A DNA stretch of 64,000 bases from Schmidtea nova. Its lineage: Eukaryota. Shown here one piece after another: positions 24,040 to 55,283 of this stretch. A program made the position numbers and the translations under genes. Every line of letters begins with the position of its first letter. The first letter of the stretch is position 1. The DNA is taken from the NCBI GenBank assembly GCA_044892505.1, contig CM097882.1, positions 258,664,001-258,728,000 on the forward strand, read 5' to 3'. The notes beneath the pieces were generated by a model, which saw only the letters and a list, made by a program, of their open reading frames with translations, had not been told where the DNA came from and did no database searches.

Positions 24040-24090
24040 ATAGCCCCCGCCGAAGTACGCGGAGCGTATGGGAAAGGAAAAAACACGAAT

Positions 24091-27629: not shown

Positions 27630-28510
27630 GCATGATGGTAACTGGTCGTGTGCCAAGTGCATCCATCTATGCACGATTTGGCTTCGTTCTTGAATAGATG
27701 GTGGTAGATACAGATTGGAATGACTGGGTTATGAGAATTGTGGAATTCGGAAGCGCAACCAATGCAGCATTTCTGTGCATGTTTTTTGAATCGGCTGTGG
27801 AAAAAACAAATTAGTGGTGCGCTGCTACTGGGTTGTACGTTCTGTGTGCGTGTAACAGGTGGATGATTATGGCGTTGTGCTTGCTGTAATGGAGGTGTAT
27901 AGTTGGAATACTTTGTGACGTTGCAGGTGTAGTGGTTTTCGGGTGAATGTGTTGCGTTGACAATGGAGGGTGGCGGTGGTGGTGTGTAATTATCAGCGCG
28001 CGGTTTATGGGGTTGGAGTGCATAAATGCGATCAGCTATTTTAGCAAGATGGTACGGGTCTTCAGAGTCTACCAATGCGAGGGAGGTTTGTAGATTATAT
28101 GGAAGAGCGGAGAGAAATTGGTGTTTTAAGAGTTGAATGTTTTTGGACAGATCTGGAATGGCGATGTCGTTGGAGCGGGCAATCTGTGCTAGGAACAGGC
28201 TTGGTTGTTGTCCTGCGTAATTTTGTGGTGCCAAAAGCTTTGTGAGAGCTTGGGTTTGTGATGAGGTGTATTTTGACACTATCAGGGATTTGAGATCATC
28301 ATACGGGTTGTCTGCGTAAAGCGCGTCGGCTATTTTCGGGGCAAGCTCGGCTATCAATTCAGATAGTAGGCTGTCGAGTAGGTAATCGGCGCGTGATTTC
28401 GGAAAGGAAGACGTGCGCGATTCGAAAATGCGGAACCACGACGAGGGTGTGCCGTCGGGATCCAAAAAGAACAAAATTGGGCGTGAAGTGGTTGAATATA
28501 AGCGGTTCTA
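27620..28510 (-). CDS. gag: Gag (P..WF / PY..LK / PS..L type) with duplicated Cys/His motif
   Basis: TPSSWFRIFES, NPYDDLKSLIV, QQPSLFL; CFFH-x9-C-x3-C and CIYH-x9-C-x3-C. No ATG in this frame at the 5' end. Confidence 0.9.
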
Positions 28511-29720
28511 TAGTGGGTCGGACGCCTCCTAAAACGCGGAAATGAATTTCAATGATAACATTAGGTGGAATGTCGGTGAGTGACGAAACTGGGAAACCAT
28601 TGCACGTCATGTAAAATTCTTTCCTATTAATCAGATGAGAGGTGGCGATATCAGTGCGCAAATCCGTGAAAATGGGGATTTGGCGTGTTTTGTGGTTGAA
28701 ACGCGTTAGGACATATGTTGGGGAAGTGGCGAAGGAATCTTTGTTGGACATGGTGGGTTGAGAGGGGTTATTAGCATAGATTTTATTGGGAGAGTAAAGA
28801 AATTGTGCGGCATAAAAGTTTATAATTATAATAGGTATTATATATAATGTTAAGCAATTTAAGATGAATGTATATAATAATAAATAATTAATCAATAGTA
28901 TAAATTTAAAATACGACTCGCCGTGTGGATGTTGCAATTTGATTACTGCTGTTTCTGTGATCACATTTATCATGGAATAATTGTTATTGTTTGCAATTGT
29001 GCTGCTCATTAATTGACACGCGCTTGATGAGGAATTGTTCTCGTTGTTCTCATTATTATCACCGCATTTCATAGCATTTTCACTGCTGTTATTATTGTTA
29101 TTGAATTCATTCGTAGTTTCACTGCAACTGCTCTGTTGATTCACTGCTACTGCCGCTTGATATAGAGATTTAGTTGTTGTCTCAATTATAATTTTCATAG
29201 AATTGTTGGAATCGCAACCAGCATTCAATACAACATTGATTGTTGGACTGGTTGATGAAGACGTCATTCGAGATTCTAATAGTTGCTGTTTTGTAACTAG
29301 TCCTGTTTGACTGTTATCAGGAGGATTTCTGACACCATTTTTAGTAGCTGCAAAAACAATTAATAAGACGAAAAAAAATACATTCAATAAAACAAATTGT
29401 TCTTTCTTAGCTGCAGATATATCATCAGCTTTCACCGTTGAATTAATCTTCTTATGCTTCATGAAATAACTGTCTTTAATGCGCTCTGGAATATCAATGG
29501 TAGAAATATCTATCTTTGTGCTTGTAGTAATAACTGGGGTGATTGATTGTCTCATTCGCCTCTTGTGCTCACTGAATTCTTTCGTACGATTTGAGTTCTT
29601 TTTAATTGCAACATTCGATTGGTAACTTTGTGGTTTGCGTTGGGTTTTAATTTGTGCAGCTTCCATTTTTTGTAAATTGCTTCTTGCTTGTTGTTTTTTG
29701 AAAAAGGCATAAAGTGCCAT
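28359..29720 (-). CDS. 453-codon ORF1 starting in the 5' LTR: basic region, TM1, Asn/Ser-rich loop, TM2, ubiquitin-like domain; probably continuous with Gag in the intact family
   Basis: Open across the LTR, PBS and the whole leader in AT-rich DNA; AAAATGG start context; TATA-like TATATAAAA about 40 nt upstream. Confidence 0.7.
   Translation of the reverse strand: MALYAFFKKQQARSNLQKMEAAQIKTQRKPQSYQSNVAIKKNSNRTKEFSEHKRRMRQSITPVITTSTKIDISTIDIPERIKDSYFMKHKKINSTVKADDISAAKKEQFVLLNVFFFVLLIVFAATKNGVRNPPDNSQTGLVTKQQLLESRMTSSSTSPTINVVLNAGCDSNNSMKIIIETTTKSLYQAAVAVNQQSSCSETTNEFNNNNNSSENAMKCGDNNENNENNSSSSACQLMSSTIANNNNYSMINVITETAVIKLQHPHGESYFKFILLINYLLLYTFILNCLTLYIIPIIIINFYAAQFLYSPNKIYANNPSQPTMSNKDSFATSPTYVLTRFNHKTRQIPIFTDLRTDIATSHLINRKEFYMTCNGFPVSSLTDIPPNVIIEIHFRVLGGVRPTIEPLIFNHFTPNFVLFGSRRHTLVVVPHFRIAHVFLSEITRRLPTRQPTI
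28524..28751 (-). CDS. 76-aa ubiquitin-like domain ending RVLGG
   Basis: MSNKD...EFYMTCNGFPVSSLTDIPPNVIIEIHFRVLGG; exactly 76 residues from Met to GG. Confidence 0.7.
29327..29337 (-). promoter_or_regulatory. Primer-binding site TGGTGTCAGAA, complementary to a tRNA-Leu-type 3' end
   Basis: Lies 2 nt after the 5' LTR. The tRNA identity is from recall of the tRNA-Leu acceptor end (...UUCUGACACCA). Confidence 0.8.
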
Positions 29721-29846
29721 TTTTTTGTGATTTAAAACAAATTGATTTTTTTTATATAAATAAATTGATAATTGATTTTAATATATAAATAATATGACAT
29801 TTAATTAAATAATATAATAACATATAATTATAACGGAGGCACTACA
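29340..29846 (-). repeat. 5' LTR (TGTAGT...ACTAAA)
   Basis: Direct repeat of 23533-24039, adjacent to the TSD and PBS. Confidence 0.95.
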
Positions 29847-29907
29847 CTATCCTGTTAAGCTATTTATATTTTGTGTCCTTGTTGTATCCTTCACAATGAC
29901 TTAGTTT

Positions 29908-29984: not shown

Positions 29985-30204
29985 TTTATTTATATTTTAA
30001 ATAATTTTAGATGTATAACTTATATANNNNNNNNNNNNNNNNNNNNNNNNNNNNNNNNNNNNNNNNNNNNNNNNNNNNNNNNNNNNNNNNNNNNNNNNNN
30101 NNNNNNNNNNNNNNNNNNNNNNNNNNNNNNNNNNNNNNNNNNNNNNNNNNNNNNNNNNNNNNNNNNNNNTATAAACAGTTATTTGAATAATGGAAAAAAA
30201 TGGC

Positions 30205-31140
30205 AGAAGATGGATTTAGATAAATCCAAGCAGCACCAAGTATATAATCAGAAGATGAATTTAGATAAATCCAAGCAGCACCAAGTATATAATCAGAAGA
30301 TAATTTAGATATATCCAAGCAGCACCAAGTATATAATCAGAAGATAATTTAGATAAATCTAAGCAGCACCAAGTATATAATCAGAAGATGAATTTAGATA
30401 AATCCAAGCAGCACCAAGTATATAATCAGAAGATAATTTAGATATATCCAAGCAGCACCAAGTATATAATCAGAAGATAATTTAGATAAATCTAAGCAGC
30501 ACCAAGTATATAATCAGAAGATGAATTTAGATAAATCCAAGCAGCACCAAGTATATAATCAGAAGATAATTTAGATATATCCAAGCAGCACCAAGTATAT
30601 AATCAGAAGATAAATTTAGATAAATCCAAGCAGCACCAAGTATATAAACAGAAGATAAATTTAGATAAATCCAAGCAGCACCAAGTATATAAACAGAAGA
30701 TAAATTTAGATAAATCCAAGCAGCACCAAGTATATAATCAGAAGATGAATTTAGATAAATCCAAGCAGCACCAAGTATATAATCAGAAGATAATTTAGAT
30801 ATATCCAAGCAGCACCAAGTATATAATCAGAAGATAATTTAGATAAATCCAAGCAGCACCAAGTATATAATCAGAAGATGAATTTAGATAAATCCAAGCA
30901 GCACCAAGTATATAATCAGAAGATAATTTAGATATATCCAAGCAGCACCAAGTATATAATCAGAAGATAAATTTAGATAAATCCAAGCAGCACCAAGTAT
31001 ATAAACAGAAGATAAATTTAGATAAATCCAAGCAGCACCAAGTATATAAACAGAAGATGAATTTAGATAAATCCAAGCAGCACCAAATATATAAACAGAA
31101 GATAAATTTAGATAAATGCAAGCAGCACCAAGTATATAAA
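30205..31140. repeat. Satellite, 44/45-bp unit AATCAGAAGATGAATTTAGATAAATCCAAGCAGCACCAAGTATAT, about 21 copies
   Basis: Direct periodicity with recurring variant order. Confidence 0.95.
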
Positions 31141-32514: not shown

Positions 32515-34050
32515 TTCCAAAACATATATAAATTATTCCAGAATATATATACGAAATACGTTTTTAGTGAATATACAATACCCGTCCTCCGCTATCGTAT
32601 AAATCAGTTATTGTTAATTTATATATCAATTTATATTTTAAATTTCTTAAACCATATGGAAAAGCAACAGAATCTTAATACTCGTGAAAGGCGTGAAGAT
32701 ACAGTACCAACAGGTCCCGTGCGGAAGAAAAGAATCAACGTCTCAGTTGATATGATTAAATATTTTAAAAATATGGTCACAAAAGCTACACCAATCAAAG
32801 AAATTGCATCAACACTTGGAATTTCAATACAGTGCGTTTACAAAATGATGAGAAAGCACAAAGAATGCGTTGAAGAAAATATTCCAATGAAAGAAACAAT
32901 TAAGAAATGTGGACGTAAAAGAAAAGACGAATTGAGTGTTATCGAATCTAAAGTCCTTGAAATCATACAAAATGACTATAGTCTTACACAGAGAGGAGTG
33001 GTAGATAAATTAAGACAAATTAATATCAAATGCAGTTAATCGAATGTAAGTAAGATTTTTAAACGAACGAATATAACGAGGAAGCGACTTAAACGAAAAT
33101 CTTTAAAAACTGTAAGTGCTGAAGTTATCAACGCAAGAAAAATTTATGCCAGAGAAATGAAAATGATTAATAATTCGAGATTATTGTTTTTGGATGAAAG
33201 TGGATTTAATCTCCATACTACCAACAACTATGGATATTCGCCGAAGAACATTGATGCAATCAAGCTCGTACCAACAAACAGAGGCAGAAACATTTCACTT
33301 ATTTCAATTGTGTCATATAGTGGAATCTTAAAATACAAATCGTTGGATTGTGCTTTTAACAGTGTTGAGTTGATCGCATTCCTTGCCGAAGCAAAAACTC
33401 AAGAGTGTTTTTCCCAATTGTGTATTAGTATTGGACAATGTCAAATTTCATTATTCCCCTGGCGTAATACAATGGCTGAATGAGAACGAGGTTGATTACA
33501 AGTTTCTTCCCCCTTATAGTCCCGAACTCAATCCTATAGAGGAGGTATTTTCTGTAATTAAGGCGAGATATCATACTCTGAGGCCCCTACCTCGTAATTC
33601 CAACGACGTGAAATTTAATATTGCGAATGTTATTGAAAATATAAACGGTGATAATACTTTGATCTTTGAACACTTTTATGAAGATATGCGCAGATATCTT
33701 GACTTGTCATTACGTGGAGAGCAGTTTTGAAGCAATATTATGGAAATAAACCCATATTGAAAATAAGTTATATGTAGTAGTTCGAATTTTTGGTTAGTGT
33801 AAAATTCTATATATATTCTGGAATTTTTATATATATTCTGGAATATTTTATATATATTTTGGAATAAATTATATATGTTTTATAAATTATATAAATTATA
33901 TAAATTATAAATTATATAAATTATATATATTTCGGAATAATTTATATATATTTTGGAATAACCCTGTATTAAAAATTAATACTAATTTGTTTGAATAATC
34001 GATTTATATTTGAATGTAAGATTGGGTAGCACCTGATGAAGAGAATTAAG
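31750..34050. mobile_element. Penelope-like relic: inverted ~170-bp arms with a CTGATGA hammerhead core flanking GIY-YIG remnants; right arm split by the IS630-like element
   Basis: 31770-31915 is the reverse complement of 32380-32438 joined to 33967-34050. Minus strand 32060-32365 gives ATYIGK...RVSE...VFSHIDVC (frameshifted). Confidence 0.65.
32439..33966 (+). mobile_element. IS630-like/Tc1-superfamily DD34E transposon (1528 bp), transposase disrupted
   Basis: TA-CAGGGTTATTCCAAAATATAT ... ATATTTTGGAATAACCCTG-TA. ORF pieces 32611-33730 have an HTH, FLDESGFNL, VLVLDNVKFH, FLPPYSPELNPIEE. Confidence 0.9.
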
Positions 34051-35028: not shown

Positions 35029-35620
35029 ATGTCGATGTTGTCAAAATATTCCAAATTGATTTCCAAAGAGTCGTTTCTACTATTCTGTTTGATGATAAGA
35101 ACATCTTTGAGCATTTACGAAACAGGTTTAGATGGTAGGATTGTCCGATCTATTGTTCAAAGAGATGTTCAAAAGGTTATGATTCAATTACTGAAATTTC
35201 TATTGATTGCTCGTCCTGCTACGTTTGTCAATAGTTTTATTAGATTTCTAAAAAAGAGATCATCGATATGCTTCAGAACTAGGCTTGTGGAATATTCTTA
35301 TGAACTTTATTTCAAGCATCAAACCTATTATCGCGTGGAAAACATTGATTATCGAATTAAAAGGGTTGACCAAAGTCTCACAGAAGATATCTCGGTATTT
35401 TCATCATCATTAGCTCATTTATATTCTCAATTAACGAAACCATTTCTGGATCTATGCTTATTGTCATTTTCATTGTATGAACTTGCTCGAAATCGTGGAA
35501 CTAGTAGAAGAATTCGGTGTATTGTTGCTTCTGGAGTTGTTATCTCAACTGGAGAATTACTGCGATTTGACGATTGTCCCGGAATCCTCTCGAAAGTCCA
35601 TTTGAATGTTGTTTATTTAG
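35029..35620 (+). pseudogene. ABCD: Intronless, internally deleted ABCD1/2-like peroxisomal ABC transporter fragment
   Basis: RTSLSIY..GLDGRIVRSIV, PATFVNS.IRFL, FRTRLV, QTYYRV, DQSLTEDI..FS.SLAHLYS.LTKP.LD. After the TM region it jumps to ILSKVHL, which looks like a late NBD segment. Confidence 0.85.
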
Positions 35621-36144
35621 TTACGGAAATGAATAAAAATTATTATTTNNNNNNNNNNNNNNNNNNNNNNNNNNNNNNNNNNNNNNNNNNNNNNNNNNNN
35701 NNNNNNNNNNNNNNNNNNNNNNNNNNNNNNNNNNNNNNNNNNNNNNNNNNNNNNNNNNNNNNNNNNNNNNNNNNNNNNNNNNNNNNNNNNNNNNNNNNNN
35801 NNNNNNNNNNNNNNNNNNNNNTGATGAGCCATGTGTGCGCAATAATATCATTTTTTACTCGCGTCCGTGTGCGCATGATTTGTCTTTTGTAGCGTCTGTG
35901 TGCGCACTCGATGCTTTTTCTAGCTTACGTCTGTGTGCGCAGTTCAGCAGGATTTAATTGTTTTTTAACAATGGAATTTCTGAATTTTCAGAGTTATATA
36001 TTGTTTGATAGTATGAATTTGGATTTTTGTTGTTTTGATTTGGTGAGAATTTTTGAACATTTTGCTTTTTTCACATTAAGATTTTGAATTTAAATAAACG
36101 TTTGAAGAATTGAATTGTTTTTTCGCTCTTCCGTGTACAATAAA

Positions 36145-36382
36145 ATGATTGAAGACAATTTAGCTTCAAAATTGATGACTTCAGAATTTATCTTATTACA
36201 TTTCAATGATGTCTACAACGTCGAAGGTTATCCTAATGAACCGAAAACCAGTGTGGCTCGGTTTTCTATTGCTCTTCGAGAATCTCAAAAGAATTGTGAA
36301 TCATTAACGCTGTTCAATGGTGATTTTTAAAACCCGTCCATAATTAGTACAATGATTCATGGAGATCATGTGCAAGAAAGTT
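36145..36382 (+). pseudogene. 5'-nucleotidase/metallophosphoesterase pseudogene, left part
   Basis: ILLHFNDVYNVE, ARF, LFNGDF*NPSIIST..HGDHV; in-frame TAA at 36328-36330. Confidence 0.85.
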
Positions 36383-36929
36383 AGTAGAGTAGGGGGAGCG
36401 CCCAAGAACAGGAACAGACCCCCCTCCCCCCTAATTTTTTTTACCCCCCCCCCAAAAAATTTTTTTTTAATTTTTAATTTTGTTTGAATGAAGTGAATTT
36501 TTAAATTTTAATTTTTTGTTTAAATGAAGTCAATTTAATTTTATTATTTTNNNNNNNNNNNNNNNNNNNNNNNNNNNNNNNNNNNNNNNNNNNNNNNNNN
36601 NNNNNNNNNNNNNNNNNNNNNNNNNNNNNNNNNNNNNNNNNNNNNNNNNNNNNNNNNNNNNNNNNNNNNNNNNNNNNNNNNNNNNNNNNNNNNNNNNNNN
36701 NNNNNNNNNNNNNNNNNNNNNNNNNNNNNNNNNNNNNNNNNNNNNNNNNNNNNNNNNNNNNNNNNNNNNNNNNNNNNNNNNNNNNNNNNNNNNNNNNNNN
36801 NNNNNNNNNNNNNNNNNNNNNNNNNNNNNNNNNNNNNNNNNNNNNNNNNNNNNNNNNNNNNNNNNNNATTTATATTAATTATTAATTTTAATTTATTTAT
36901 TTTTAATTTATCATTTTTTGTAAAGGATT

Positions 36930-37800
36930 TTTACTCTGGCTGTTTTGAATAGGAATTTCTACTCCGAGATTTTCTAGAGCAAAAATGGACTCTGGGGTTT
37001 TTGTACAAGAATTTTTGATCTGGATTTTTGAATACAATATATTTGTATAAGATTTTTAGTCCTATTATTTTGTATAGGATTTTCAACTCCGAGATTTTCT
37101 CGGGCAAAAAGGGACTCTGAGTTTTTTGTACATGGAATTTTTATACATGAATTTTTGGTCTGGTATTTTTTGTATAGGATTTTTAGTCCTATTATTTTGA
37201 ATAGGATTTTCAACTCCCATATTTTTCTCAGGCAAAAAGGGACTCTGATAATTTTGAACTGAAATTTTAATGGTAAATAATAAACACGTGTAAATTTTTT
37301 TTTTTAACAAGTAAATTATCATTAAAGTATTTTGTATAGGATTTTCTACTCCGAGATTTTTCTCGGGCAAAAATAGACTCTGGTAATTTTGAACTGAAAT
37401 TTTAATGGTAAATAAAAAACACGTGTAAATTTTTTAAATAAGTAAATTATCATTAAAGTATTTTGTATATGATTTTCTACTCCCAGATATTTTCTAGGGC
37501 AAAAAATAGACTCTGGTAATTTTGAACTGAAATTTTATTGGTAAATAAAAAACACGTGTAAATTTTAAAACTAGTAAAATAGTTAGAAATTATTTTGAAT
37601 AGGATTTTCAACTCCGAGATTTTTATCGGGCAAAAAGGGACTCTGGGTTTTTTGAACATGAATTTTTGATCTAGATTTTTGAATACAATATTTTGATCTG
37701 ATATTTTGTAGTGTTTTTAGTCTGGTTATTTTGTATATGATTTTCTACTCCGAGATTTTTCTCAGGCAAAAAGGGACTCTGGTAATTTTGAATATGATTT
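36930..37800. repeat. Modular CAGAGTCCCTTTTTGCC-type repeat block, mirrored and longer at 47400-48730
   Basis: Recurring GGGACTCTG / CTCCGAGATTTT motifs. Confidence 0.85.
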
Positions 37801-37854
37801 TTGATCTTGATTTTGATTTTGAAATAATATTTTGGTCGGAGAAAATTAAAAAGT

Positions 37855-38215
37855 GGTCAGAATCAAATAATTTTTATACCAATCTACTGAGAATCGAATG
37901 GCGAACAAAAAAGGTTCAAAAAGTATAAACATGAAAATTTTGACTTTTCCGACCCAAATTTTACACGTAAAAATGGTCAACTCGGGGAAATTACAAAAAT
38001 CAAAAATGCTCAGAATCAAATAATTTTTATACCAATCTACTGAGAATCGAATGGCGAACAAAAAAGGTTCAAAAAGTAAAAACATGAAAATTTTGACTTT
38101 TCCGACCCAATTTTTACACGTAAAAAGGGTCAACTCGGGGAAATTCCAAAAATCAAAAATGCACAGAATCAAATAATTTTTATACCAATCTACTGAGAAT
38201 TGAAAGGCAAACAAT
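37855..38215. repeat. 153-bp tandem unit; core motif occurs 3 times here and 4 times at 46860-47370
   Basis: GAATCAAATAATTTTTATACCAATCTACTGAGAAT at 37860, 38013, 38166. Confidence 0.9.
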
Positions 38216-39419
38216 AATGGTCAAAAAATTAAAATCATGAAAAAATCAAAATTTTATACGTAAAATTACAGTCTCAGTAAAAAAGGGTAAAATACATAAA
38301 AACGTGGAAATATTTAAAATAAAAATTTTTAAACTAAATAATTAAATCTAAATAAATTTATGATAATTAAATAAAAAAGTAAATAAATTCTATACGAATT
38401 TCAAAACTCAATAAATAATTCACTCATTATTTTGTATTTAATTTATCAAGTAAAATGGTACATTAAATAAAAAAGTAAATAAATTCTATACAAATTTCAA
38501 AACTCAGTAAATAATTCACTCATTATTTTGTATTGAATTTATCAAGTAAAATGATACATTAAATAAAAGCATGGAAATAATAAGTAAATTAAACTTAGAA
38601 TTTAAAAATAATTTGTACTGGATTTATGAAAAATATCAAAGTAAATAAATTAAAGATAGAATTTTAAAAATAATTATGAATTTAATGATAAATAGAAATA
38701 TAAGTAAATTAAGAATAAAAAAGTAAATTAAGAAAGACGTGAGTTTTAATGTCATAATTTAAAAAAGAATTGCTTTTAAAGGAACTTTTTAAGGTAATAT
38801 TTGAAAAATGTGAGAATAATTAATTATTTTTGAAATTTTTTAAAGTAAAATTTATTAACAATAAGGTCAATGTAGAATTTTTTAGCAATAAAATCAATGA
38901 AAATTTTTTAATTAATATTTTTCATAAGTAAAATTTTTTAACTAATAAATACAAATCTAATTGTTTTTTCAATATGATGTTTTTTAAGGAAATGATCAAA
39001 TGTAGTAAATAAAACACATGTAAATATTGAATTTATTTAGAACAAAAAATAGTTATTAAACAAGAGTTTTTACAATTTTGTATACTAAGTTAAAAAATAT
39101 CAATTAATGACATAAATTTTTAAAAATAAACGTAATAATTNNNNNNNNNNNNNNNNNNNNNNNNNNNNNNNNNNNNNNNNNNNNNNNNNNNNNNNNNNNN
39201 NNNNNNNNNNNNNNNNNNNNNNNNNNNNNNNNNNNNNNNNNNNNNNNNNNNNNNNNNNNNNNNNNNNNNNNNNNNNNNNNNNNNNNNNNNNNNNNNNNNN
39301 NNNNNNNNNNNNNNNNNNNNNNNNNNNNNNNNNNNNNNNNNNNNNNNNNNNNNNNNNNNNNNNNNNNNNNCTAAGTACCAGCAATAAACCGATCAAATAA
39401 CTAATAATCTCATTACACA

Positions 39420-40270
39420 CACAAATCAACCACTGACTAGTAACTGATCAAATGCCAACTGAATCTATCCACAAATCAACAATCGACTAGTTACTTACAA
39501 GTTACCAACTGACTCTATATATTAACCAACTAGGAAATTGTTCCATGTGTCAATCACTTCCTATTGCCTATATATCAAATAATCCAATCCCCTTAGTTAA
39601 CAAATAGTACAATTCCTTACTTACTAACTTTATCTATACTAACCAACTAACTATACATACTAACCAGCAACCAATACCTTACTAACCAACTAGTTTTATA
39701 CATTAACCAACTAACTTTATTCACAAATCACCAACCAACTAACTAACTAACTAACCAGCAATCAATTCCTTACTAACCAACTAGTTCTATACATCAATCA
39801 ACTAACTCTTCACATTAACCAAGTAACTAACTAACTATACATACTAACCAGCAACCACTTCCTTACTAACCAACTAGTTATATACATCAACCAACTAACT
39901 CTTCACATTAACCAAGTAACTAACTAACTATACATACTAACCAGCAACCACTTCCTTACTAACCAACTAGTTCTATACATCAATCAACTAACTCTTCACA
40001 ATAACCAAGTAACTAACTAACTAACTAACCAGCAATCAATTCCTTACTAACCAACTAGTTCTATACATTAACCAACTAACTTTATCTATACTAACCAACC
40101 AACTACACTAACCAACTAACTAGCTATACATACTAATCTCTTACTAACCAACTAGTTCTATTCATTATTCTTGTACCAACCAACCAACTACATTAACCAA
40201 CTAACTAACTAACTAACCAATTCCTTACTTCCCAACTAACTCTTCTCATTAACCAACTAACTATTCATAA
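39420..40270. repeat. ACTA/ACCA-rich low-complexity satellite, mirrored at about 44950-45720
   Basis: Recurrent ACTAACCAACTAGTT with strong C/A strand skew. Confidence 0.9.
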
Positions 40271-43200
40271 ATCAACAACAGACTAGTTAATTATTAAATA
40301 TCAATTGATTCTATCCACAATCTACTAGTTAAAACAACTAATCGGATACCAACTGACTCTATATATTAAACAAATAAATCTTCACTCTAAGGAAATTGTT
40401 CCACGTATCAATTAACTCTTCGCATTAACTAGATATGATATTTAAAACTATCTGATTCTAAATATCGTGTCATAAAATTAAATTTATTACTTTGAATAAT
40501 TTAATTAATCTTTAGTTGATTATCAGTTTTCAAAAAGGTATACTAATATCTACATAGTTAAAATGAAATTTTTTATTAATTAAAGTTATTAAAATTTTGA
40601 ATATATTTAAAATGCAAATGACTTTTAATACAAAGCTCTATTGAAATCATTGTTCATCTATTTTTTCACTTGATAACTAACATGTATAATTAATTTAAAA
40701 ATCATTATAAAAACTCTGTTAACTAGGTAAACATATTAAAATGATAAGTAAGCAACTAATGAAATATTTTTTGATACTTCTTATTACATGTCCAATTAAA
40801 TTCTTCACTCCGATAATTTAAAAGAATAAATAAATAAATATTCAAATAATTCTAAAAATTAATAAAAATTAATTCAAAATTTCAATACAAATATTTATTT
40901 ATTAAACATGCTAAACAGTACTACCAAATGTTTTTGTTATTGGATTCTAGTATCAGATTCTATTATTTCCAATTCACATCAACATTGACGATATGATTTT
41001 CATCAATAGCAATGGATAATAAAATCCAATTGGTTCAAACATGTGTATTTTATCAGGTTTCACATAAACTGCAATCATGAAAATATAATTTGAATCTTTT
41101 ACAGGTAAAAACCATCACAAAAGAGGTTCTGTTACCAAAGGTTCTGCTAGAAAGGTTCTGCTACGTGATAAATTTAATGAAAATGTATCAATAATAGTAT
41201 ATAAGTGAATATACAATATGAATCTTTTTACAGGTAAAAACCATCACAAAAGAGGTTCTGTTACTAAAGGTTCTGCTAGAAAGGTTCTGCTACGTGATAA
41301 ATTTAATGAAAATGTAACAATAATAGTATATAAGTGAATATACAATATGAATCTTTTACAGGTAAAAACCATCACAAAAGAGGTTCTGCTACCAAAGGTT
41401 CTGCTAGAAAGGTTCTGATACTGAATATAATTGTTAATAATGAATTTTACCAAAATATTTATTAATTTTTCATTTTAAATATTTTTAGTGAATTATTAAT
41501 ATTAATATTTTTATTATTAACACGTAATAATTTTGCAACATTAAATCTGTTTCGAATGTTCATTATGAAATTTATAAAAGTTGATATAATAAGAAAAAAT
41601 AATCAATTTATTCACAAAGGGCAAATTATGTTAAACGAAATCTGATTGGTCAATTTAAATTATGAAAACATATATATATAAATTGATTAAAAATTACAGA
41701 TTTCATTAAAAATGTATCAACTTAAAAGTAAGTTTAATTAATTTTGAATGATTATTTTTTAATATTTTTCTCTTGAATCTTCGAACAAAAAGATGTTTAA
41801 ACAAAAAGTAATGAAAATTATTCTTAATGATGTTGTCAAACCTGTTTTGAAAAATTATAGAAACAAATATATGTGAATAAAATTTATTTATCAAATCTTA
41901 TCTTTTCATTTCATTTTATTTTATTTTATTTTATTTTATTTTATTTTTTGTTTTGGTTAATTTAAATTTTTAATAATAATTATTTTTTGTGTTAAATTTA
42001 TTACCAAATATTTAAAATCGATTAGTTTTTTATTAAAATAAAAATAATTAATTTTTTATTTTATTTTATTTTTTGTTTTGGTTAATTTTAATTTTTAATA
42101 ACAATTATTTTTTGTGTTAAATTTATTACCAAATATTTAAAATCGATTAGTTTTTTATTAAAATAAAAATAATTAATTTTATTATCATAATTATTCTAAA
42201 TTGATTTTGTTTTAATAATTGATTATACGTTTAAAATTAAAATTCAAAATAATTTTCTTTAATATTTTCCCGGCAACAATAATTAATTCGGAATTTGATA
42301 TATATTCGAATATATATCAAATTCCGAATTAATTATTGTTGCCGGGAAAATATTAAAGAAAATTATTTTGAATTTTAATTTTAAACGTATAATCAATTAA
42401 TAAAACAAAATCAATTTAGAATAATTATGATAATAAAATTAATTATTTTTATTTTAATAAAAAACTAATCGATTTTAAATATTTGGTAATAAATTTAACA
42501 CAAAAAATAATTGTTATTAAAAATTTAAATTAACCAAAACAAAAAATTAAATAAAATAAAAAATTAATTATTTTTATTTAATAAAAAAAAACTAATCAAT
42601 TTTAAATAATTGGTAATAAATTTAACACAAAAAATAATTGTTATTAAAAATTAAAATTAACCAAAACAAAAAATAAAATAAAATAAAAAATTAATTATTT
42701 TTATTTTAATAAAAATCTAATCGATTTTAAATATTTGGTAATAAATTTAACACAAAAAAATAATTGTTATTAAAAATTAAAATTAACCAAAACAAAAAAT
42801 AAAATAAAATAAAAAATTAATTATTTTTATTTTAATAAAAAACTAATCGATTTTAAATATTTGGTAATAAATTTAACACAAAAAATAATTATTATTAAAA
42901 ATTTAAATTAACCAAAACAAAAAATAAAATAAAATAAAATAAAATGAAATGAAAAGATAAGATTTGATAAATAAATTTTATTCACATATATTTGTTTCTA
43001 TAATTTTTCAAAACAGGTTTGACAACATCATTAAGAATAATTTTCATTACTTCTTGTTTAAACATCTTTTTGTTCGAAGATTCAAGAGAAAAATATTAAA
43101 AAATAATCATTCAAAATTAATTAAACTTACTTTTAAGTTGATACATTTTTAATGAAATCTGTAATTTTTAATCAATTTATATATATATGATTTCATAATT

Positions 43201-43439
43201 TAAATTTGACCAATCAGATTTCGTTTAACATAATTTGCCCTTTGTTAATAAATTGATTATTTTTTCTTATTATATCAACTTTTATAAATTTCATAATGAA
43301 CATTCGAAACAGATTTAATGTTGCAAAATTATTACGTGTTAATAATAAAAATATTAATATTAATAATTCACTGAAAATATTTAAAATGAAAAATTAATAA
43401 ATATTTTGGTAAAATTCATTATTAACAATTATATTCAGT

Positions 43440-44150
43440 ATCAGAACCTTTCTAGCAGAACCTTTGGTAGCAGAACCTCTTTTGTGATGGTTTTTACCTG
43501 TAAAAGATTTATATTGTATATTCACTTATATACTATTATTGTTACATTTTCATTAAATTTATCACGTAGCAGAACCTTTCTAGCAGAACCTTTGGTAGCA
43601 GAACCTCTTTTGTGATGGTTTTTACCTGTAAAAGATTCATATTGTATATTCACTTATATACTATTATTGTTACATTTTCATTAAATTTATCACGTAGCAG
43701 AACTTTTCTAGCAGAACCTTTGGTAGCAGAACCTCTTTTGTGATGGTTTTTACCTGTAAAAGATTTATATTGTATATTCACTTATATACTATTATTGTTA
43801 CATTTTCATTAAATTTATCACGTAGCAGAACCTTTCTAGCAGAACCTTTGGTAGCAGAACCTCTTTTGTGATGGTTTTTACCTGTAAAAGATTCATATTG
43901 TATATTCACTTATATACTATTATTGTTACATTTTCATTAAATTTATCACGTAGCAGAACTTTTCTAGCAGAACCTTTGGTAGCAGAACCTCTTTTGTGAT
44001 GGTTTTTACCTGTAAAAGATTCATATTGTATATTCACTTATATACTATTATTGATACATTTTCATTAAATTTATCACGTAGCAGAAACTTTCTAGCAGAA
44101 CCTTTGGTAACAGAACCTCTTTTGTGATGGTTTTTACCTGTAAAAGATTC
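43440..44150. repeat. 128-bp tandem unit, about 5.5 copies (about 2.5 copies at 41095-41420)
   Basis: GCAGAACCTT..TAGCAGAACCTTTGG recurs at 128-bp spacing. Confidence 0.9.
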
Positions 44151-47100
44151 AAATTATATTTTCATGATTGCAGTTTATGTGAAACCTGATAAAATACACA
44201 TGTTTGAACCAATTGGATTTTATTATCCATTGCTATTGATGAAAATCATATCGTCAATGTTGATGTGAATTGGAAATAATAGAATCTGATACTAGAATCC
44301 AATAACAAAAACATTTGGTAGTACTGTTTAGCATGTTTAATAAATAAATATTTGTATTGAAATTTTGAATTAATTTTTATTAATTTTTAGAATTATTTGA
44401 ATATTTATTTATTTATTCTTTTAAATTATCGGAGTGAAGAATTTAATTGGACATGTAATAAGAAGTATCAAAAAATATTTCATTAGTTGCTTACTTATCA
44501 TTTTAATATGTTTACCTAGTTAACAGAGTTTTTATAATGATTTTTAAATTAATTATACATGTTAGTTATCAAGTGAAAAAATAGATGAACAATGATTTCA
44601 ATAGAGCTTTGTATTAAAAGTCATTTGCATTTTAAATATATTCAAAATTTTAATAACTTTAATTAATAAAAAATTTCATTTTAACTATGTAGATATTAGT
44701 ATACCTTTTTGAAAACTGATAATCAACTAAAGATTAATTAAATTATTCAAAGTAATAAATTTAATTTTATGACACGATATTTAGAATCAGATAGTTTTAA
44801 ATATCATATCTAGTTAATGCGAAGAGTTAATTGATACGTGGAACAATTTCCTTAGAGTGAAGATTTATTTGTTTAATATATAGAGTCAGTTGGTATCCGA
44901 TTAGTTGATTTAACTAGTAGATTGTGGATAGAATCAATTGATATTTAATAATTAACTAGTCTGTTGTTGATTTATGAATAGTTAGTTGGTTAATGAGAAG
45001 AGTTAGTTGGGAAGTAAGGAATTGGTTAGTTAGTTAGTTAGTTGGTTAATGTAGTTGGTTGGTTGGTACAAGAATAATGAATAGAACTAGTTGGTTAGTA
45101 AGAGATTAGTATGTATAGCTAGTTAGTTGGTTAGTGTAGTTGGTTGGTTAGTATAGATAAAGTTAGTTGGTTAATGTATAGAACTAGTTGGTTAGTAAGG
45201 AATTGATTGCTGGTTAGTTAGTTAGTTAGTTACTTGGTTAATGTGAAGAGTTAGTTGGTTGATGTATATAACTAGTTGGTTAGTAAGGAAGTGGTTGCTG
45301 GTTAGTATGTATAGTTAGTTAGTTACTTGGTTAATGTGAAGAGTTAGTTGATTGATGTATAGAACTAGTTGGTTAGTAAGGAATTGATTGCTGGTTAGTT
45401 AGTTAGTTAGTTGGTTGGTGATTTGTGAATAAAGTTAGTTGGTTAATGTATAAAACTAGTTGGTTAGTAAGGTATTGGTTGCTGGTTAGTATGTATAGTT
45501 AGTTGGTTAGTATAGATAAAGTTAGGAAGTAAGGAATTGTACTATTTGTTAATTAAGGGGATTGGATTATTTGATATATAGGCAATAGGAAGTGATTGAC
45601 ACATGGAACAATTTCCTAGTTGGTTAATATATAGAGTCAGTTGGTAACTTGTAAGTAACTAGTCGATTGTTGATTTGTGGATAGAGTCAGTTGGCATTTG
45701 ATCAGATACTAGTCAGTGGTTGATTTGTGTGTGTAATGAGATTATTAGTTATTTGATCGGTTTATTGCTGGTACTTAGNNNNNNNNNNNNNNNNNNNNNN
45801 NNNNNNNNNNNNNNNNNNNNNNNNNNNNNNNNNNNNNNNNNNNNNNNNNNNNNNNNNNNNNNNNNNNNNNNNNNNNNNNNNNNNNNNNNNNNNNNNNNNN
45901 NNNNNNNNNNNNNNNNNNNNNNNNNNNNNNAATTATTACGTTTATTTTTAAAAATTTATGTCATTAATTGATATTTTTTAACTTAGTATACAAAATTGTA
46001 AAAACTCTTGTTTAATAACTATTTTTTGTTCTAAATAAATTCAATATTTACATGTGTTTTATTTACTACATTTGATCATTTCCTTAAAAAACATCATATT
46101 GAAAAAACAATTAGATTTGTATTTATTAGTTAAAAAATTTTACTTATGAAAAATATTAATTAAAAAATTTTCATTGATTTTATTGCTAAAAAATTCTACA
46201 TTGACCTTATTGTTAATAAATTTTACTTTAAAAAATTTCAAAAATAATTAATTATTCTCACATTTTTCAAATATTACCTTAAAAAGTTCCTTTAAAAGCA
46301 ATTCTTTTTTAAATTATGACATTAAAACTCACGTCTTTCTTAATTTACTTTTTTATTCTTAATTTACTTATATTTCTATTTATCATTAAATTCATAATTA
46401 TTTTTAAAATTCTATCTTTAATTTATTTACTTTGATATTTTTCATAAATCCAGTACAAATTATTTTTAAATTCTAAGTTTAATTTACTTATTATTTCCAT
46501 GCTTTTATTTAATGTATCATTTTACTTGATAAATTCAATACAAAATAATGAGTGAATTATTTACTGAGTTTTGAAATTCGTATAGAATTTATTTACTTTT
46601 TTATTTAATGTACCATTTTACTTGATAAATTAAATACAAAATAATGAGTGAATTATTTATTGAGTTTTGAAATTCGTATAGAATTTATTTACTTTTTTAT
46701 TTAATTATCATAAATTTATTTAGATTTAATTATTTAGTTTAAAAATTTTTATTTTAAATATTTCCACGTTTTTATGTATTTTACCCTTTTTTACTGAGAC
46801 TGTAATTTTTCGTATAAAATTTTGATTTTTTCATGATTTTAATTTTTTGACCATTATTGTTTGCCTTTCAATTCTCAGTAGATTGGTATAAAAATTATTG
46901 AATTCTGACAACTTTTTAATTTTTGGAAATTCCCCGAGTTGACCCTTTTTACGTGTAAAAATTGGGTCGGAAAAGTCAAAATTTTCATGTTTTTACTTTT
47001 TGACCCTTTTTTGTTCGCCATTTAATTCTCAGTAGATTGGTATAAAAATTATTTGATTCTGAGCATTTTTGATTTTTGGAATTTCCCCGAGTTGACCATT

Positions 47101-49328
47101 TTTACATGTAAAAATTGGGTCGGAAAAGTCAAAATTTTCATGTTTATACTTTTTGAACCTTTTTTTTCGCCATTCGATTCTCAGTAGATTGGTATAAAAA
47201 TTATTTGATTCTGAGCATTTTTGATTTTTGGAATTTCCCCGAGTTGACCATTTTTACGTGTAAAAATTGGGTAGGAAAAGTCAAAATTTTCATGTTTTTA
47301 CTTTTTGAACCTTTTTTGTTCGCCATTCGATTCTCAGTAGATTGGTATAAAAATTATTTGATTCTGACCACTTTTTAATTTTCTCTGACCAAAATATTAT
47401 TTCAAAATCAAAATCAAGATCAAAAATCATATTCAAAATTACCAGAGTCCCTTTTTGCCTGAGAAAAATCTCGGAGTAGAAAATCATATACAAAATAACC
47501 AGACTAAAAACACTACAAAATATCAGATCAAAATATTGTATTCAAAAATCTAGATCAAAAATTCATGTACAAAAAACCCAGAGTCCCTTTTTGCCCGATA
47601 AAAATCTCGGAGTTGAAAATCCTATTCAAAATAATTTCTAACTATTTTACTAGTTTTAAAATTTACACGTGTTTTTTATTTACCAATAAAATTTCAGTTC
47701 AAAATTACCAGAGTCTATTTTTTGCCCGAGAAAATATCTGGGAGTAGAAAATCATATACAAAATACTTTAATGATAATTTACTTATTTAAAAAATTTACA
47801 CGTGTTTTTTATTTACCATTAAAATTTCAGTTCAAAATTATCAGAGTCCCTTTTTGCCTGAGAAAAATATGGGAGTTGAAAATCCTATTCAAAATAATAG
47901 GACTAAAAATCCTATACAAAAAATACCAGACCAAAAATTCATGTATAAAAATTCCATGTACAAAAAACCCAGAGTCCCTTTTTGCCCTAGAAAATTACGG
48001 AGTAGAAAATCCTATACAAAATAACCAGACTAAAAACACTACAAAATATCAGACCAAAATATTGTATTCAAAAAATCCAGATCAAAAATACTATTCAAAA
48101 ATTCCCTGTACAAAAACCCAGAGTCTCTTTTTGCCCTAGAAAATTGTGGGAATTGAAAATCATATTGAAAATAATTTCAATGTATTTTACTAGTTTAAAA
48201 AATTTACACGTGTTTTTTATTTACCAATAAAATTTCAGTTCAAAATTACCAGAGTCTATTTTTGCCCGAGAAAAATCTCGGAGTAGAAAATCCTATACAA
48301 AATACTTTAATGATAATTTACTTGTTAAAAAAAAAAATTTACACGTGTTTATTATTTACCATTAAAATTTCAGTTCAAAATTATCAGAGTCCCTTTTTGC
48401 CTGAGAAAAATATGGGAGTTGAAAATCCTATTCAAAATAATAGGACTAAAAATCCTATACAAAAAATACCAGACCAAATATTCATGTATAAAAATTCCAT
48501 GTACAAAAAATCCAGAGTCCCTTTTTGCCCGAGAAAATCTCGGAGTTGAAAATCCTATACAAAATAATAGGACTAAAAATCTTATACAAAAATATTGTAT
48601 TCAAAAATCCAGATCAAAAATTCTTGTACAAAAACCCCAGAGTCCCTTTTTGCTCTAGAAAATCTCGGAGTAGAAATTCCTATTCAAAACAGCCAGAGTA
48701 AAAATCCTATACAAAATAACCAGAGTAAAAATCCTTTACAAAAATAAATTAATTAAAAATAAATAAATTAAAATTAATAAAAATAAATAAATTAATAAAA
48801 ATTAATAAAAATAAATTAATAAAAATAAATTATTAAAAATAAATTATTAAAAATAAATTATTAAAAATAAATTAAAATAAATTAAAATAAATAAATTAAT
48901 AATTAATATAAATTAATATAAATTAATAAAAATTAATAAAAATAAATTAATAAAAATAAATTATTAAAAATAAATTATTAAAAATAAATTATTANNNNNN
49001 NNNNNNNNNNNNNNNNNNNNNNNNNNNNNNNNNNNNNNNNNNNNNNNNNNNNNNNNNNNNNNNNNNNNNNNNNNNNNNNNNNNNNNNNNNNNNNNNNNNN
49101 NNNNNNNNNNNNNNNNNNNNNNNNNNNNNNNNNNNNNNNNNNNNNNNNNNNNNNNNAAAATAATAAAATTAAATTGACTTCATTTAAACAAAAAATTTAA
49201 ATTTAAAAATTCACTTCATTGAAACAAAATTAAAAATTAAAAAAAAAATTTTTTGGGGGGTGGGTAAAAAAAAATTTTTAGGGGGGAGGGGGTCTGTTCC
49301 TGTTCTTGGGCGCTCCCCCTACTCTACT

Positions 49329-49483
49329 AAAGTTTGAATGAACTCGATATTGATGTGGCCGTGTCATGTGGCAATCATGATTTTGCCTTCGTAGTTGTCA
49401 AGTTAATGCAATGTGTGGACAAAATAAGTTTCCAATGGTTGAATAGTGATATCTTTAATATCTTAGCTCGATTAAAACAATAA
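49329..49483 (+). pseudogene. 5'-nucleotidase/metallophosphoesterase pseudogene, right part
   Basis: The joined empty site reads HVQESLNELDIDVAVSCGNHDFAF...QWLNSDI, including the GNHD motif. Confidence 0.85.
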
Positions 49484-50608: not shown

Positions 50609-50881
50609 TCAACGAATGTTTTCATCCCTTTCTTCTTCTATTGAAGAATGCGTATTTACGGACATGGATTTGATTTTGAATAATTTCGGTTTTTGTTTTA
50701 ATGATGTGTTCGATTTCGATATGTCACTCGATTGTTCTTGATTTTTTTTCAACATTGACAGCTGAAATTGGTACCATTCTTTGTTTGACTCTAGTGTCTC
50801 GAGCATTTCTTGAGCATTAGGGTACACCAGTTCGGCCCAGGTTGACCACAAAGGTCGCACAATAAAATCAATAAAACTAAC
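50609..50881 (-). CDS. PDE4: PDE4 last coding exon
   Basis: [37 protein letters not shown]; acceptor AG at 50882-50883; stop at 50609. Confidence 0.95.
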
Positions 50882-50932
50882 CTAAAGTAGAGGCAATATT
50901 AAAAAAGTTTGCTTTACATTTGTATTTTTTAC

Positions 50933-51238
50933 TTGAGATTTTTCAATCGAAGCAGTTGCTCTGTCACACATCGGACTGATCTCAACTTTTGAGTCTCTTT
51001 CTTTGTCGCCTTGCCGAAAGAATTCTTCCATAATTCTTTGAGTCCACTCTTGATACAATGACAACGGTTTCGTTGGGTTGCTGAGATCAGCACAGTGAAC
51101 CATATTTTGTAAAATTAGCAATCGATCGGAATAGCCTTCGAAATTCAATACTCCTGATCCGGATAATTTTTTCCCTTCTACCATTTGTTTAAGTTCAGAC
51201 AACAATGACATGTGCTTTGACATATCAGTGGCAAGCAC
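50933..51238 (-). CDS. PDE4: PDE4 exon
   Basis: [40 protein letters not shown]; GT-AG intron 50882-50932 (51 nt). Confidence 0.97.
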
Positions 51239-52639
51239 CTGTGTATAACATATTGTATAGTTTTATGAATTGAAAACCAATTAATTGAGACTACTGACTA
51301 ATATTTTCAAAAAGTGTCGTCCAGATCTCGTGGAACAGACAAAAATGCAAAGATTAATAATAAAAAGCGACACTCAAATAACCGTTTTGCTACGCATTTC
51401 TAAAGGTGCAATGTCATCATCAGGTAGAAAATAAAAATAAAATTGTTTTATATATTTTTAAAGCCCGTTATATATTAAATTATTTTAATAATTCAAAAAA
51501 AATTTTAATTTTATTTGTTTCACTATTTCCGAAAAATATTAAAAATTTTAATAATTTAACAATAAAATTTAAAATTTTTAAAATTAATTAATTTTCGGAT
51601 CAAATGATCTTAGTAGCAACACAAATCTTCCCAATAATTATCAGAAAATTTTTGATAAAATTTTGTTTGAGTTATACAAAATTAAAAAGAAACAAAAAAT
51701 GTGCAAAATTAATTAATAATTAATTAAATTTTCAAAAACGGTAAAAATCAATATTTTTCTTGGGGAAAGTGGCAATCGACGGCAAATTAAAAGTTAAAAC
51801 GAATAAAATAATTTTAAAATAATTTGGAGTTCCTATGAAGTGCTAGGACAAAAAAACAAATTAATTAGTTGATTTCATTAATCATCAGAACGATCTTATC
51901 AATCATTGTGGAGAAAAAGACAAATGTTCAGACTAGACAAGCCGGAAAATTGTTTGTCAAAGTCAGAGGGGGGGGGTAGCTAGTAGCAAATGGAAAATAA
52001 GCATGTCAAAAGTAGATAATTTTCCGGGGTTTCTTCTTTTCCCACATTGACTGATTTGATTAAGCTTAGCATATAAACAAATACATTTTAGTTTAATTTG
52101 CCAGTTTGTCAAACAAGTGAAATTTAGTGCCAATCAGATTTTATGGGTGATATCCTTACGATTATCTACCCAAAGAGAAAATAATATTTTTTAAAACTGA
52201 CTATATAAATAACTTTGAGATTNNNNNNNNNNNNNNNNNNNNNNNNNNNNNNNNNNNNNNNNNNNNNNNNNNNNNNNNNNNNNNNNNNNNNNNNNNNNNN
52301 NNNNNNNNNNNNNNNNNNNNNNNNNNNNNNNNNNNNNNNNNNNNNNNNNNCTATTATTAATAAAAACACGAAATTGCCAAACAATAGAAATATATTTCAA
52401 GGACATAGTCCTCATCATCAGTCTGCCATCATAATCTAAATCAAATGCTATATACGGAAACAGTAATGACGTAATGGCTATGATTTAATGAGTTATTAAA
52501 TAATCTCAATAAATTCGTTGCTGATTGAATATTAATTGTAGGGGATTGTGATTTAATCACCAACGCCTCACATAAAATTCTTTCCTATTTATTGTTAAAG
52601 TTTTTTAACATAATTTTAAAATCTTTTAAATCAGTTTCT

Positions 52640-53290
52640 CCTTTACACATTTTTCTATGCTCAATAATATTACTCACACCTTTCAATCGGCTATGTTCCT
52701 GAACCGTGTGCGGAGATGACGGGAAGTCTCTCCAATGTATGTGGCATTGCACCCATTACATGACAACCTTTACACTAGATCAGACACTAAACCTATTGGG
52801 GTTTGAGATTTATTACTGAACATATTTACTGATTTTAAAGACTTTGAAACTATGTTAAATATGTTAGAATTTCCTAAGGATTTCATTACAGAACACTTAT
52901 AGTTTTTAAATAGATTCTGTATGGGACTGATTTGAGGTTTTTTTCGGTACCACAAGAAATTCCGTCTCAAGTCGCCAGTTGGCATGCTTGATTTATATAA
53001 ATTTTTATTTTTTTGATCGTTGAAAAGGTTTTTTTGTTAAACACTGGATTTGACAACATATTCATGTTTATAAAGCATCCAAAAATACATAACTGTCGGA
53101 TGCACATTTTATGGTGACAAAGTTGATCAGCGGTAAGTCTACGATTGAATGTAGATCTTGAATATCAGTGGAATAAATAGTTATTGAAATAGGCTAAGAT
53201 AAATGCGGTGTGAAAAATTTACAGAATAAATCTAAAAATGTCTACAAATTCATAAATGAAATGTATCGACCTGCTGAACAAGTTGCGGTG
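52640..53290 (-). mobile_element. Decayed Penelope-like RT/GIY-YIG remnant in a PDE4 intron
   Basis: SQTPIGLVSDLV*...CNGCNATYIGETSRHLRTR; eroded VDTF and FLD RT motifs upstream. Confidence 0.75.
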
Positions 53291-54246
53291 ATAATCAATA
53301 ATTATCTGCCGTTCACATATCAAATGGAACTCAAATTTTAGGGAAAACATTTTTCGTCTGCTTTTATTTATATTCTTAGAAAATTCTTTTGTACATTATA
53401 TTTAATGATAATTATTTGCTACTCATATTTCTCCTAAGACTAGCATGGATATATTTTATTGCCTTCCCCTGTGTTAGGTATAAATGTATAGTTTATTTTA
53501 TTTTATATTTTATTGTGTATTTCACTCTACTGGTCTACGGTAGAGGTCGGCAAAAATTATATAAATTCATACTTTTCATTTCATTCTTTAAGGTCTTTTA
53601 TATTTTTGGTAAAATTAAAATGACCCTTGTTAAAAGGGTCGCTGATCCCTGATTTTCAAGGTGAAAAATGTCAATGATTTTCTGGAAGGAAGTTTTGATA
53701 ACTAGTGATATTTCAATCATAGTGCCACACAAACTGAACTACATGCTTTAACATTTCAATTTCCCCTGGCCAGATCTTGTTACTGTCAGTGAGCAACATT
53801 GGTATATGTATAATGTAATAATAGGAGTTAACGTAGCGACCTAATGTACAGTTCTCAATTTGTTATGGACTTTACGCAAAGCTATGCTTATCAACCATAT
53901 CTTTGGTGGTCGGTAATGTTTTGTTTGATTTTGCGTTTTGCTCAATTTAAATACTGCCAATTTCTTAAGCACATATTTACTGAAATTTCAACCGTTCAAA
54001 AATTGAATTGACTACTTTGAAATACAATAAAGTCTAGTCAACTCCCTTTCTGTGCATGATGCTCTTTGATCAAATAATCTTCTGAACTATAAAAAGAATC
54101 CAAAATTGAATAAATAAATTCTTACTTAACATATTGTTGTCGGAAAACGAAAAATTACGTTTTTCATGTGTCATATGTTGCAATGTAATATACGTAAATA
54201 AGCGTATTATTCATAATGTTCGTTGATTGCAGAATTTGTATAAATA

Positions 54247-55283
54247 CCCCGGCCTACCAAACGTCTCCAATCAAGCAGTTATTTACATATTGCAGTTTAT
54301 AATAAACATCTGCGGTGCAAATATTAACAACAATGGGAACAAAGATCACCAACACCTTCAACATGCTGCATGCGCACATGTACACACACGCGCACACACA
54401 GACACAAACAGAATATGACTACTCACGCCAGACACACAGCAGTGATAACAGTGAGACATTTTAATGAAGGATTGTCACTTTATTAGGATATAACTGCTCA
54501 CACCAGACACACGACAGTGATAATTCGTCGTCGTCGCTTGAAGTGGTGTCGGGAGAGAAGGAGTTGGACAGCAGAACAATGGCGCTCAGTCATTTGGAGT
54601 GATGAATCACATTTCACTCTTTTCAAATCTGATGGACAGCAATTCTGCTGGCGTCGTGTAGGAGAACGGTTTCACCCTGACAGCATTCAGCACACTGTGA
54701 AATATGAAGGAGGCTCCATCATGTTTTGGAGTCTTTTTTCAGCTCGTGGATTTGGTCCTCTAGTGAAGTGCAGCAATCACATGACGTCAGTGGAATACCG
54801 TGCCATTCTGGAAAACGAGCTTGTTCCCTTTCTCCCAGAAATCGAGGGGCTCATTTTCCAACAGGATAATGCACCAATCAATACTTAGCACATTATAAAA
54901 GAATTCTTTCTGAAGCACAAGATCAACTTTTTGGATTAGTTTCCACGAAGTCCTGATCTGAATTTTATTGAGTTTCTGTGAAACATCCTTGGTAGACAAG
55001 TTCGCAAAAGGTTTCCCATTGCCCGTAATGCCTTCGAACTAGAAACTCATCTGCCTGAGAAATGGTCACACATCTCCCCTGATTTCCTGGCAAGTGGTCG
55101 ATACAATGCCTAAACGAGTGCGCCTTGTTATCCAGATGAAAGGTAATATAACGAAGTACTAACTCTCTCAGCACTACAGAGATTCAGTATTCGTGTGTGT
55201 TTGTAACATTTGTTCCCATTTCTGTTCATTATAAACTGCATTATGTATATAACTGCCTGACTGGAGACTTTTGGTAGGTTTTC
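54247..55283 (+). mobile_element. Internally deleted Tc1 (DD34E) element
   Basis: Imperfect ~90-bp TIRs (CCTACCAAA.GTCTCCA.TCA.GCAGTTA). Motifs WSDESHF, GGSIMFW, FQQDNAP, SPDLNFIE. Confidence 0.85.

Follow-up and report, generated by a model that had tools for sequence, protein, structure and literature searches.

A 12.9-kb gene-less palindrome with a spacer-less apex, a 6-bp target duplication, and Polinton-like ends

Features of the window

The window analysed here—that is, the whole 64-kb stretch of DNA—contains a 12,946-bp palindrome (36383–49328, 23% G+C), the parts of which are listed in Table 1. Elsewhere in the window, the minus strand carries a Gypsy-type LTR retrotransposon (23527–29852) with 519-bp LTRs that are 98.7% alike and with gag (DUF7041), RT, RNase H, and integrase distributed across three frames. 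A mariner transposase fragment (14978–15721), a 45-bp tandem array of 21 copies (30204–31139), and a split HTH + DDE_3 transposase (32611–33483) are also present, as are the exons of a PDE4-type phosphodiesterase (about 50700–59100, minus strand), which share 70–74% identity with named animal proteins and 89% with one further protein. On the same strand, a CTGATGA...GAAA motif (52421–52395), which we take to resemble a minimal hammerhead core, follows decayed sequence similar to a Penelope-type 3' end; at the gathering threshold, Rfam returned no match for this motif or for any other part of the window. A second pair of inverted repeats (56794–57190 and 63239–63628), about 400 bp long and 88% identical, is separated by 6 kb.

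Table 1. Coordinates of the palindrome, its termini and arrays, and the gene that it interrupts.
Feature	Positions	Strand	Remarks
Target gene, 5' part of 5'-nucleotidase-like pseudogene	36175..36378	+	P0121 residues 1-68, 71% identity, one stop
Left target duplication, AAAGTT (6 bp)	36377..36382	+	directly outside left end
Left terminus, AGTAGAGTAG	36383..36392	+	(AGTAG)x2
Left arm, 5,925 bp	36383..42307	+	includes two N runs; modular, array units about 125, 135, 153, 96, 50, 93, 129, and 125 bp
153-bp array	37842..38243	+	2.6 copies; mirror 46828-47382, 3.6 copies
93-bp array	39640..40165	+	5.7 copies; mirror 45075-45509, 4.7 copies
128/129-bp array	41078..41421	+	2.7 copies; mirror 43438-44164, 5.7 copies
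Inner 125-bp array	41929..42185	+	2.0 copies; mirror 42430-42939, 4.0 copies
Perfect palindromic core, 2 x 92 bp	42216..42399	.	axis 42307/42308, no spacer; recurs in other runs
Right arm, 7,021 bp	42308..49328	-	includes two N runs; reverse complement of left arm with other array copy numbers
Right terminus, CTACTCTACT on + strand	49319..49328	-	
Right target duplication (6 bp)	49329..49334	+	directly outside right end
Target gene, rest of 5'-nucleotidase-like pseudogene	49334..49468	+	P0121 residues 70-113, 62% identity

Apex and arms of the palindrome

A sequence-only reading of the window had described an apex without any loop between 42307 and 42308 and near-perfect symmetry for more than 100 bp, and both descriptions hold. 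The letters that it quoted lie where it placed them, the 92 bp on either side of the axis are fully complementary, and the arms first disagree at offset 93 (42215/42400), with the next mismatch at offset 219; the repeat finder likewise reported an ungapped arm pair at the axis of 282 nt and 98% identity, with 0 nt between the arms. This core is the longest perfect zero-spacer palindrome of the window, the runner-up being a 36-bp (AT)n run, and, given the local composition, 92 complementary positions in a row would arise by chance at a site with a probability of about 10^-37. When single-stranded, the apex region folds into a hairpin with a forced 4-nt loop. Long perfect palindromes are usually regarded as unstable, and central deletions or spacers tend to arise in them.

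The unit of about 6 kb proposed in the same reading corresponds to arms of 5,925 bp (left) and 7,021 bp (right), N runs included (Table 1). The arms are near-mirror images rather than identical ones, their alignment comprising 5,237 matched columns, 14 gaps, and, within the element, 51 substitutions. Judged by size and position, five of the six largest N-free gaps (93–408 bp) are whole-unit differences in array copy number. Across the five non-array blocks, the arms differ at 9 of 2,333 positions, and these differences are spread unevenly (0/571, 3/250, 1/908, 4/482, and 1/122). Among the arrays, the left and right arms have the same outer mirror units in the 93-bp array (L0=R0, L1=R1) and the inner 125-bp array (L0=R0), the remaining unit pairs of these two arrays being 2–21 letters apart; no identical mirror units were found in the 128-bp and 153-bp arrays. 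In the right-arm copy of the 128-bp array (43502–44141), unit 1 is identical to unit 3 and unit 2 to unit 4, a pattern of recent 256-bp dimer duplication that is present in the right arm only and is either real or a product of assembly. The four N runs of the element, amounting to 861 bases of unread content (547 and 314), occupy mirror positions with unequal lengths (39141–39370/45779–45930 and 36551–36867/48995–49156).

Ends, insertion site, and coding content

Both ends of the palindrome, when read inward, begin with AGTAGAGTAG, and AAAGTT abuts each of them. The 14-base end has exactly two occurrences in the window, compared with an expectation of 0.03, and no further copy of the element end was found elsewhere in the 64 kb. 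According to the available part of one source, vertebrate Mavericks have 6-bp duplications as a hallmark and ends of the form (AGT)2//(ACT)2 or (AG)3//(CT)3, and these end repeats are thought to serve jumping-back during protein-primed initiation (PMC8097293). The AGTAGA of the present terminus matches the first five of the six letters of (AGT)2; the end itself is a 5-bp repeat and is an exact match to neither of the two published vertebrate motifs. Scans for the terminal motif gave two matches in viral contigs and one in metagenome contigs, all three without similarity beyond the motif, and the apex 36-mer had no match in viral contigs.

The flanks of the element belong to a 5'-nucleotidase-like pseudogene that is split between residues 68 and 70 of its homolog P0121, the missing residue corresponding to a codon inside the left duplication. 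Neither half was recognised by Pfam or PDB searches, and the homolog recognised both. Because P0121 continues from residue 68 to residue 70 across the element, both flanks belong to one interrupted gene, the duplication measures exactly 6 bp, and the insertion is real; this length, fixed by the continuity of the target gene, was obtained at the one insertion site observed. The two gene halves also rule out a simple fold-back chimera, since a chimera would have mirrored the flank as well.

Two further observations concern this site. A reading of the ends as a TA duplication of the Tc1/mariner kind was rejected, as the target gene would then retain six additional bases, a stop among them. In addition, an intron-less ABC_membrane_2 transporter fragment adjoins the decayed 5'-nucleotidase piece (35029–36378 and 49334–49468, plus strand) among short TGTGTGCGCA-containing repeats, and both fragments may have been brought here as parts of genes by another mobile element.

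No Pfam family was matched by any of 30 reading frames from the N-free sequence of the element (29 left-arm frames of at least 40 aa and the longest right-arm frame), and pPolB, integrase, ATPase, protease, and capsid were thus without a match among them. The longest frame, of 149 aa, is located inside a tandem array. With no match to the Polinton gene set among these frames, the element is not an autonomous Polinton.

Recurrence of the apex in other copies

Five public sequencing runs contain part of 39371–42340: four from organism A, which belong to one study, and one soil metagenome (X1) from another. Four of the five were aligned, as assembled contigs throughout, to the 916 bp of 41430–42345, the fifth (X5) sharing its sample with X4; bins 41895–42080 have no cover because repeats were skipped. 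The soil run holds 0.19 of the query words and was used for its contig alone. The runs may stem from individuals or populations other than those of the assembly, and one of them could be related to the assembly source.

In a simulated 31-mer graph, a contig that crosses the axis of a spacer-less palindrome must stop 15 bases beyond it, at 42322. Record 7 of the soil run, which is 161 nt long (42161–42322) and carries two substitutions and one gap relative to the assembly copy, ends at precisely this point, so that the same axis is present in another copy or individual, sampled by a second study. In the organism-A runs, the share of depth that crosses the axis was 0.88 (X2), 0.82 (X3), and 0.70 (X4), values roughly estimated from depth at 42298 and over the final two bins, given that depth is flat per contig, that a mirror contig may be assigned to either side of the axis, and that depth is not copy number. 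Record 24 of X3 bridges the axis with 48 and 31 letters. The three organism-A runs yielded 3,453, 576, and 509 variant contigs on the 916 bp, and these variants point to a multi-copy family of which the element is a member.

Some pieces follow the arm and then leave it close to the centre. Four of the 32 pieces listed (there are 4,570 further ones) depart at 42293–42324 with 253–758 unaligned letters and at low depth (10–44): records 15 and 16 of X2 and records 31 and 32 of X4, the last of which departs at 42306. They may come from copies that are decayed or truncated, or that carry a spacer or other sequence at the centre. The expectation that other copies would have the same apex is supported by the variant soil copy and, apparently, by most of the organism-A contig depth, and it is qualified by these four departures; on the contigs available, the apex appears to be common to most copies of the family.

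Symmetry of the arms across the family

Fifteen family-polymorphic sites are listed in the organism-A contigs, and at 14 of them the two arms of the present element carry the same letter. The letter that the arms have in common is the minority letter in at least two of the three runs at 7 of these 14 symmetric sites, and at site 41770 it accounts for about 0.1% or less of the pool. A probability of 10^-7 to 10^-10 for independent draws at the polymorphic sites is illustrative and not a p-value, as the sites are linked. The arms disagree at the remaining site, where 99–100% of the pool has the right-arm letter. Five further arm differences within the covered sequence fall outside the list, which has a 5% threshold, and none of the six is near 50% in the pool; a seventh, at 42089, falls in the skipped repeat zone.

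If the arms had been inherited as separate lineages, their differences would be found at about 50%; none is. Variation across the family is symmetric and arm differences are private, and the letters common to both arms at 14 of 15 sites, often rare ones, indicate that arms are homogenised faster than copies diverge. The identical outer mirror units of the 93-bp and inner 125-bp arrays agree with this, and the 128-bp and 153-bp arrays, which have none, speak against it. This pattern fits a single arm as the hereditary unit, regenerated through a hairpin, and chromosomal conversion would give the same pattern.

Origin of the palindrome

Whatever its mechanism of origin, the palindrome is a genuine insertion flanked by a 6-bp duplication; it has AGTAG ends, lacks recognisable genes, and shows a recurring apex and arms with polymorphisms in common. 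Its ends and duplication suggest that it was probably mobilised by Polinton/Maverick machinery. Beyond this, the reading that we favour, and to which we give slightly less than an even chance, is a family of gene-less palindromes moved by Polintons, with a zero-spacer apex throughout the family and with arms that are reset through hairpin or snap-back copying. A Polinton integrase would make the 6-bp duplication, and an excised or displaced single strand would fold into a complete hairpin—that is, a Polinton 'racket' whose loop has disappeared entirely—although a cruciform might instead be cut into hairpin-capped halves. A complete hairpin is what the intermediate of the standard annealed-TIR model would become if the whole element were a palindrome. 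Protein-primed synthesis, starting at the open end and turning at the apex to return, would yield a head-to-head duplex with two free Polinton ends. The two arms would become identical again around the time of transposition if one of them were lost during copying of the hairpin or if the stem were repaired, after which the inserted arms would diverge through private substitutions and slippage of the tandem arrays; faithful copying of a folded strand would be expected to keep arm differences unless the stem were repaired or one arm discarded.

The same ends, duplication, common apex, and common polymorphisms are accounted for equally well if a palindrome with a single origin, by deletion of a centre or extension of TIRs, was moved by Polintons and copied whole, its arms being kept alike in the chromosome by arm-to-arm conversion or cruciform repair, with no hairpin monomer. 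TIR extension and conversion through repair have been proposed for Galileo in the part of the literature available (PMC3573991), and the uneven arm differences across the non-array blocks could come from patchy conversion. We nevertheless consider this account rather unlikely. Private arm differences persist along the arm, even at 93 bp from the axis, which is where conversion should act most strongly; with the 14 other polymorphic sites all symmetric, this seems closer to resetting followed by drift than to continuous conversion. Considering the instability of palindromes, a spacer-less centre in most copies would also be hard to explain if it had no use.

More doubtful still is an origin unrelated to Polintons, in which the element would be a foldback-type cut-and-paste transposon (FB/Galileo/Tetris) served by a DDE transposase from a superfamily that makes 6-bp duplications. 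Long modular TIRs built of variable-copy tandem arrays, without coding capacity, are the very definition of foldbacks in the accessible portions of two sources (PMC4079207, PMC3169594), the first of which also states that this structure arises independently in different TE lineages. As far as those portions extend, however, the duplications are 7 bp for Galileo, 8–10 bp for Tetris, and mostly 9 bp for Tm1, against 6 bp here; Tetris has a middle domain and TIRs of up to 1.7 kb, whereas the palindrome has AGT-starting repeated ends, no middle domain, and arms of 6–7 kb. Moreover, no G/C-containing 9-mer of the terminal 168 bp is found in the arrays, unlike reiterated transposase sites. An artefact of assembly or amplification (a fold-back chimera, or the collapse of a spacer or of internal sequence) is largely refuted and highly improbable: the flanks are two gene halves with an exact 6-bp duplication and not mirror images, the arms bear private differences, and the axis recurs in a variant copy sampled by a second study. 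What can be said for it is that the axis is seen in assembled contigs, that the library types of X2–X5 are not on record and amplification is possible for the organism-A runs, and that the unequal array copy numbers, mostly lower on the left, could come from assembly.

Resetting of the arms through hairpin copying, which we prefer, can be extended to a heritable snap-back satellite of Polintons, a tentative proposal that we place clearly below an even chance. A one-armed, gene-less replicon of about 6 kb would be copied by a helper pPolB round its covalently closed apex, giving an integrated dimer of about 13 kb that is perhaps packaged at close to the helper's length. The sequence-only reading had similarly proposed an integrated snap-back or dimer form of a one-ended unit, a defective-interfering-like parasite of a Polinton, which is a term that implies competition with a helper; the recurring apex, the letters common to both arms, and the Polinton-like ends and duplication speak for it, and homogenisation by itself, as Galileo illustrates, is no proof. 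Polinton replication is, to our knowledge, a model that has never been observed. If the satellite proposal is true, such elements would preserve in the genome a trace of the Polinton hairpin intermediate, which is not known to have been observed, and would form a class of defective-interfering-like parasites that have become established as families of transposons.

The wider interest would lie in an animal genome with many 13-kb near-perfect palindromes and a conserved loopless centre. This locus contributes a loopless centre common to copies, together with a site-by-site test of arm symmetry. A comparison of arm divergence with insertion age, combined with a search for hairpin or half-length DNA, would separate replication-linked resetting from chromosomal conversion. 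Should the connection to Polintons not hold, the locus would still represent a foldback element of unusual size with a 6-bp duplication.

Comparison with known systems

Repbase is said to list non-autonomous Polintons. In the literature searched, with most subscription papers, supplements, and Repbase outside its scope, we found no description of whole-element palindromic Polinton derivatives. Polintons/Mavericks are 13–25 kb long with TIRs of 100–1,500 bp in the available parts of two sources (PMC8097293; 10.1101/2023.08.22.554363), and in the standard model, as given in the accessible part of a third, the TIRs anneal and the element is excised, copied by pPolB, and reinserted with a new duplication (10.64898/2026.07.28.741278). 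The palindrome resembles them in its 6-bp duplication, its inverted ends, its AG(T)-starting and internally repeated end motif, and its length of 12.9 kb, at the low end of the range given there. It differs from them in having no match to pPolB, integrase, ATPase, protease, or capsid; in its end motif, (AGTAG)2 as opposed to the (AGT)2 or (AG)3 reported in those excerpts; and in its inverted repeat, which takes up the whole palindrome at 6–7 kb per arm.

With foldbacks (FB, two-TIR copies of Galileo, Tetris, and Tm1), as these are portrayed in the available parts of the literature, the palindrome has in common its lack of genes, its long modular inverted arms, its variable-copy internal tandem arrays, and a high identity between the arms of one copy (PMC3573991, PMC4079207, PMC3169594). 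In the same excerpts, foldbacks have duplications of 7–10 bp, P or Mutator transposases, and lengths of a few kb, in contrast to 6 bp, a zero spacer, and 13 kb here. Galileo, a cut-and-paste element, has TIR identities of 98–100% within a copy and 92–97% between copies of a subfamily in the accessible portion of its description (PMC3573991), and this excess of within-copy identity means that homogenisation alone does not prove snap-back replication.

Like a snap-back genome, the palindrome is self-complementary with a fixed, spacer-less turn point, as judged from contigs alone and with some decayed copies departing from it. The snapback subgenomes of AAV are, in the available part of their description, one-ended self-complementary pieces of a linear genome that form head-to-head dimer duplexes and depend on a helper (PMC8235507), and the palindrome would be similar in these respects. 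Those subgenomes are packaged and extrachromosomal, contain partial genes, and arise anew, whereas the palindrome, known here as integrated DNA alone, is gene-less and inherited as a family. By analogy, the AAV snapback subgenomes may be regarded as the closest mechanistic counterpart of this element.
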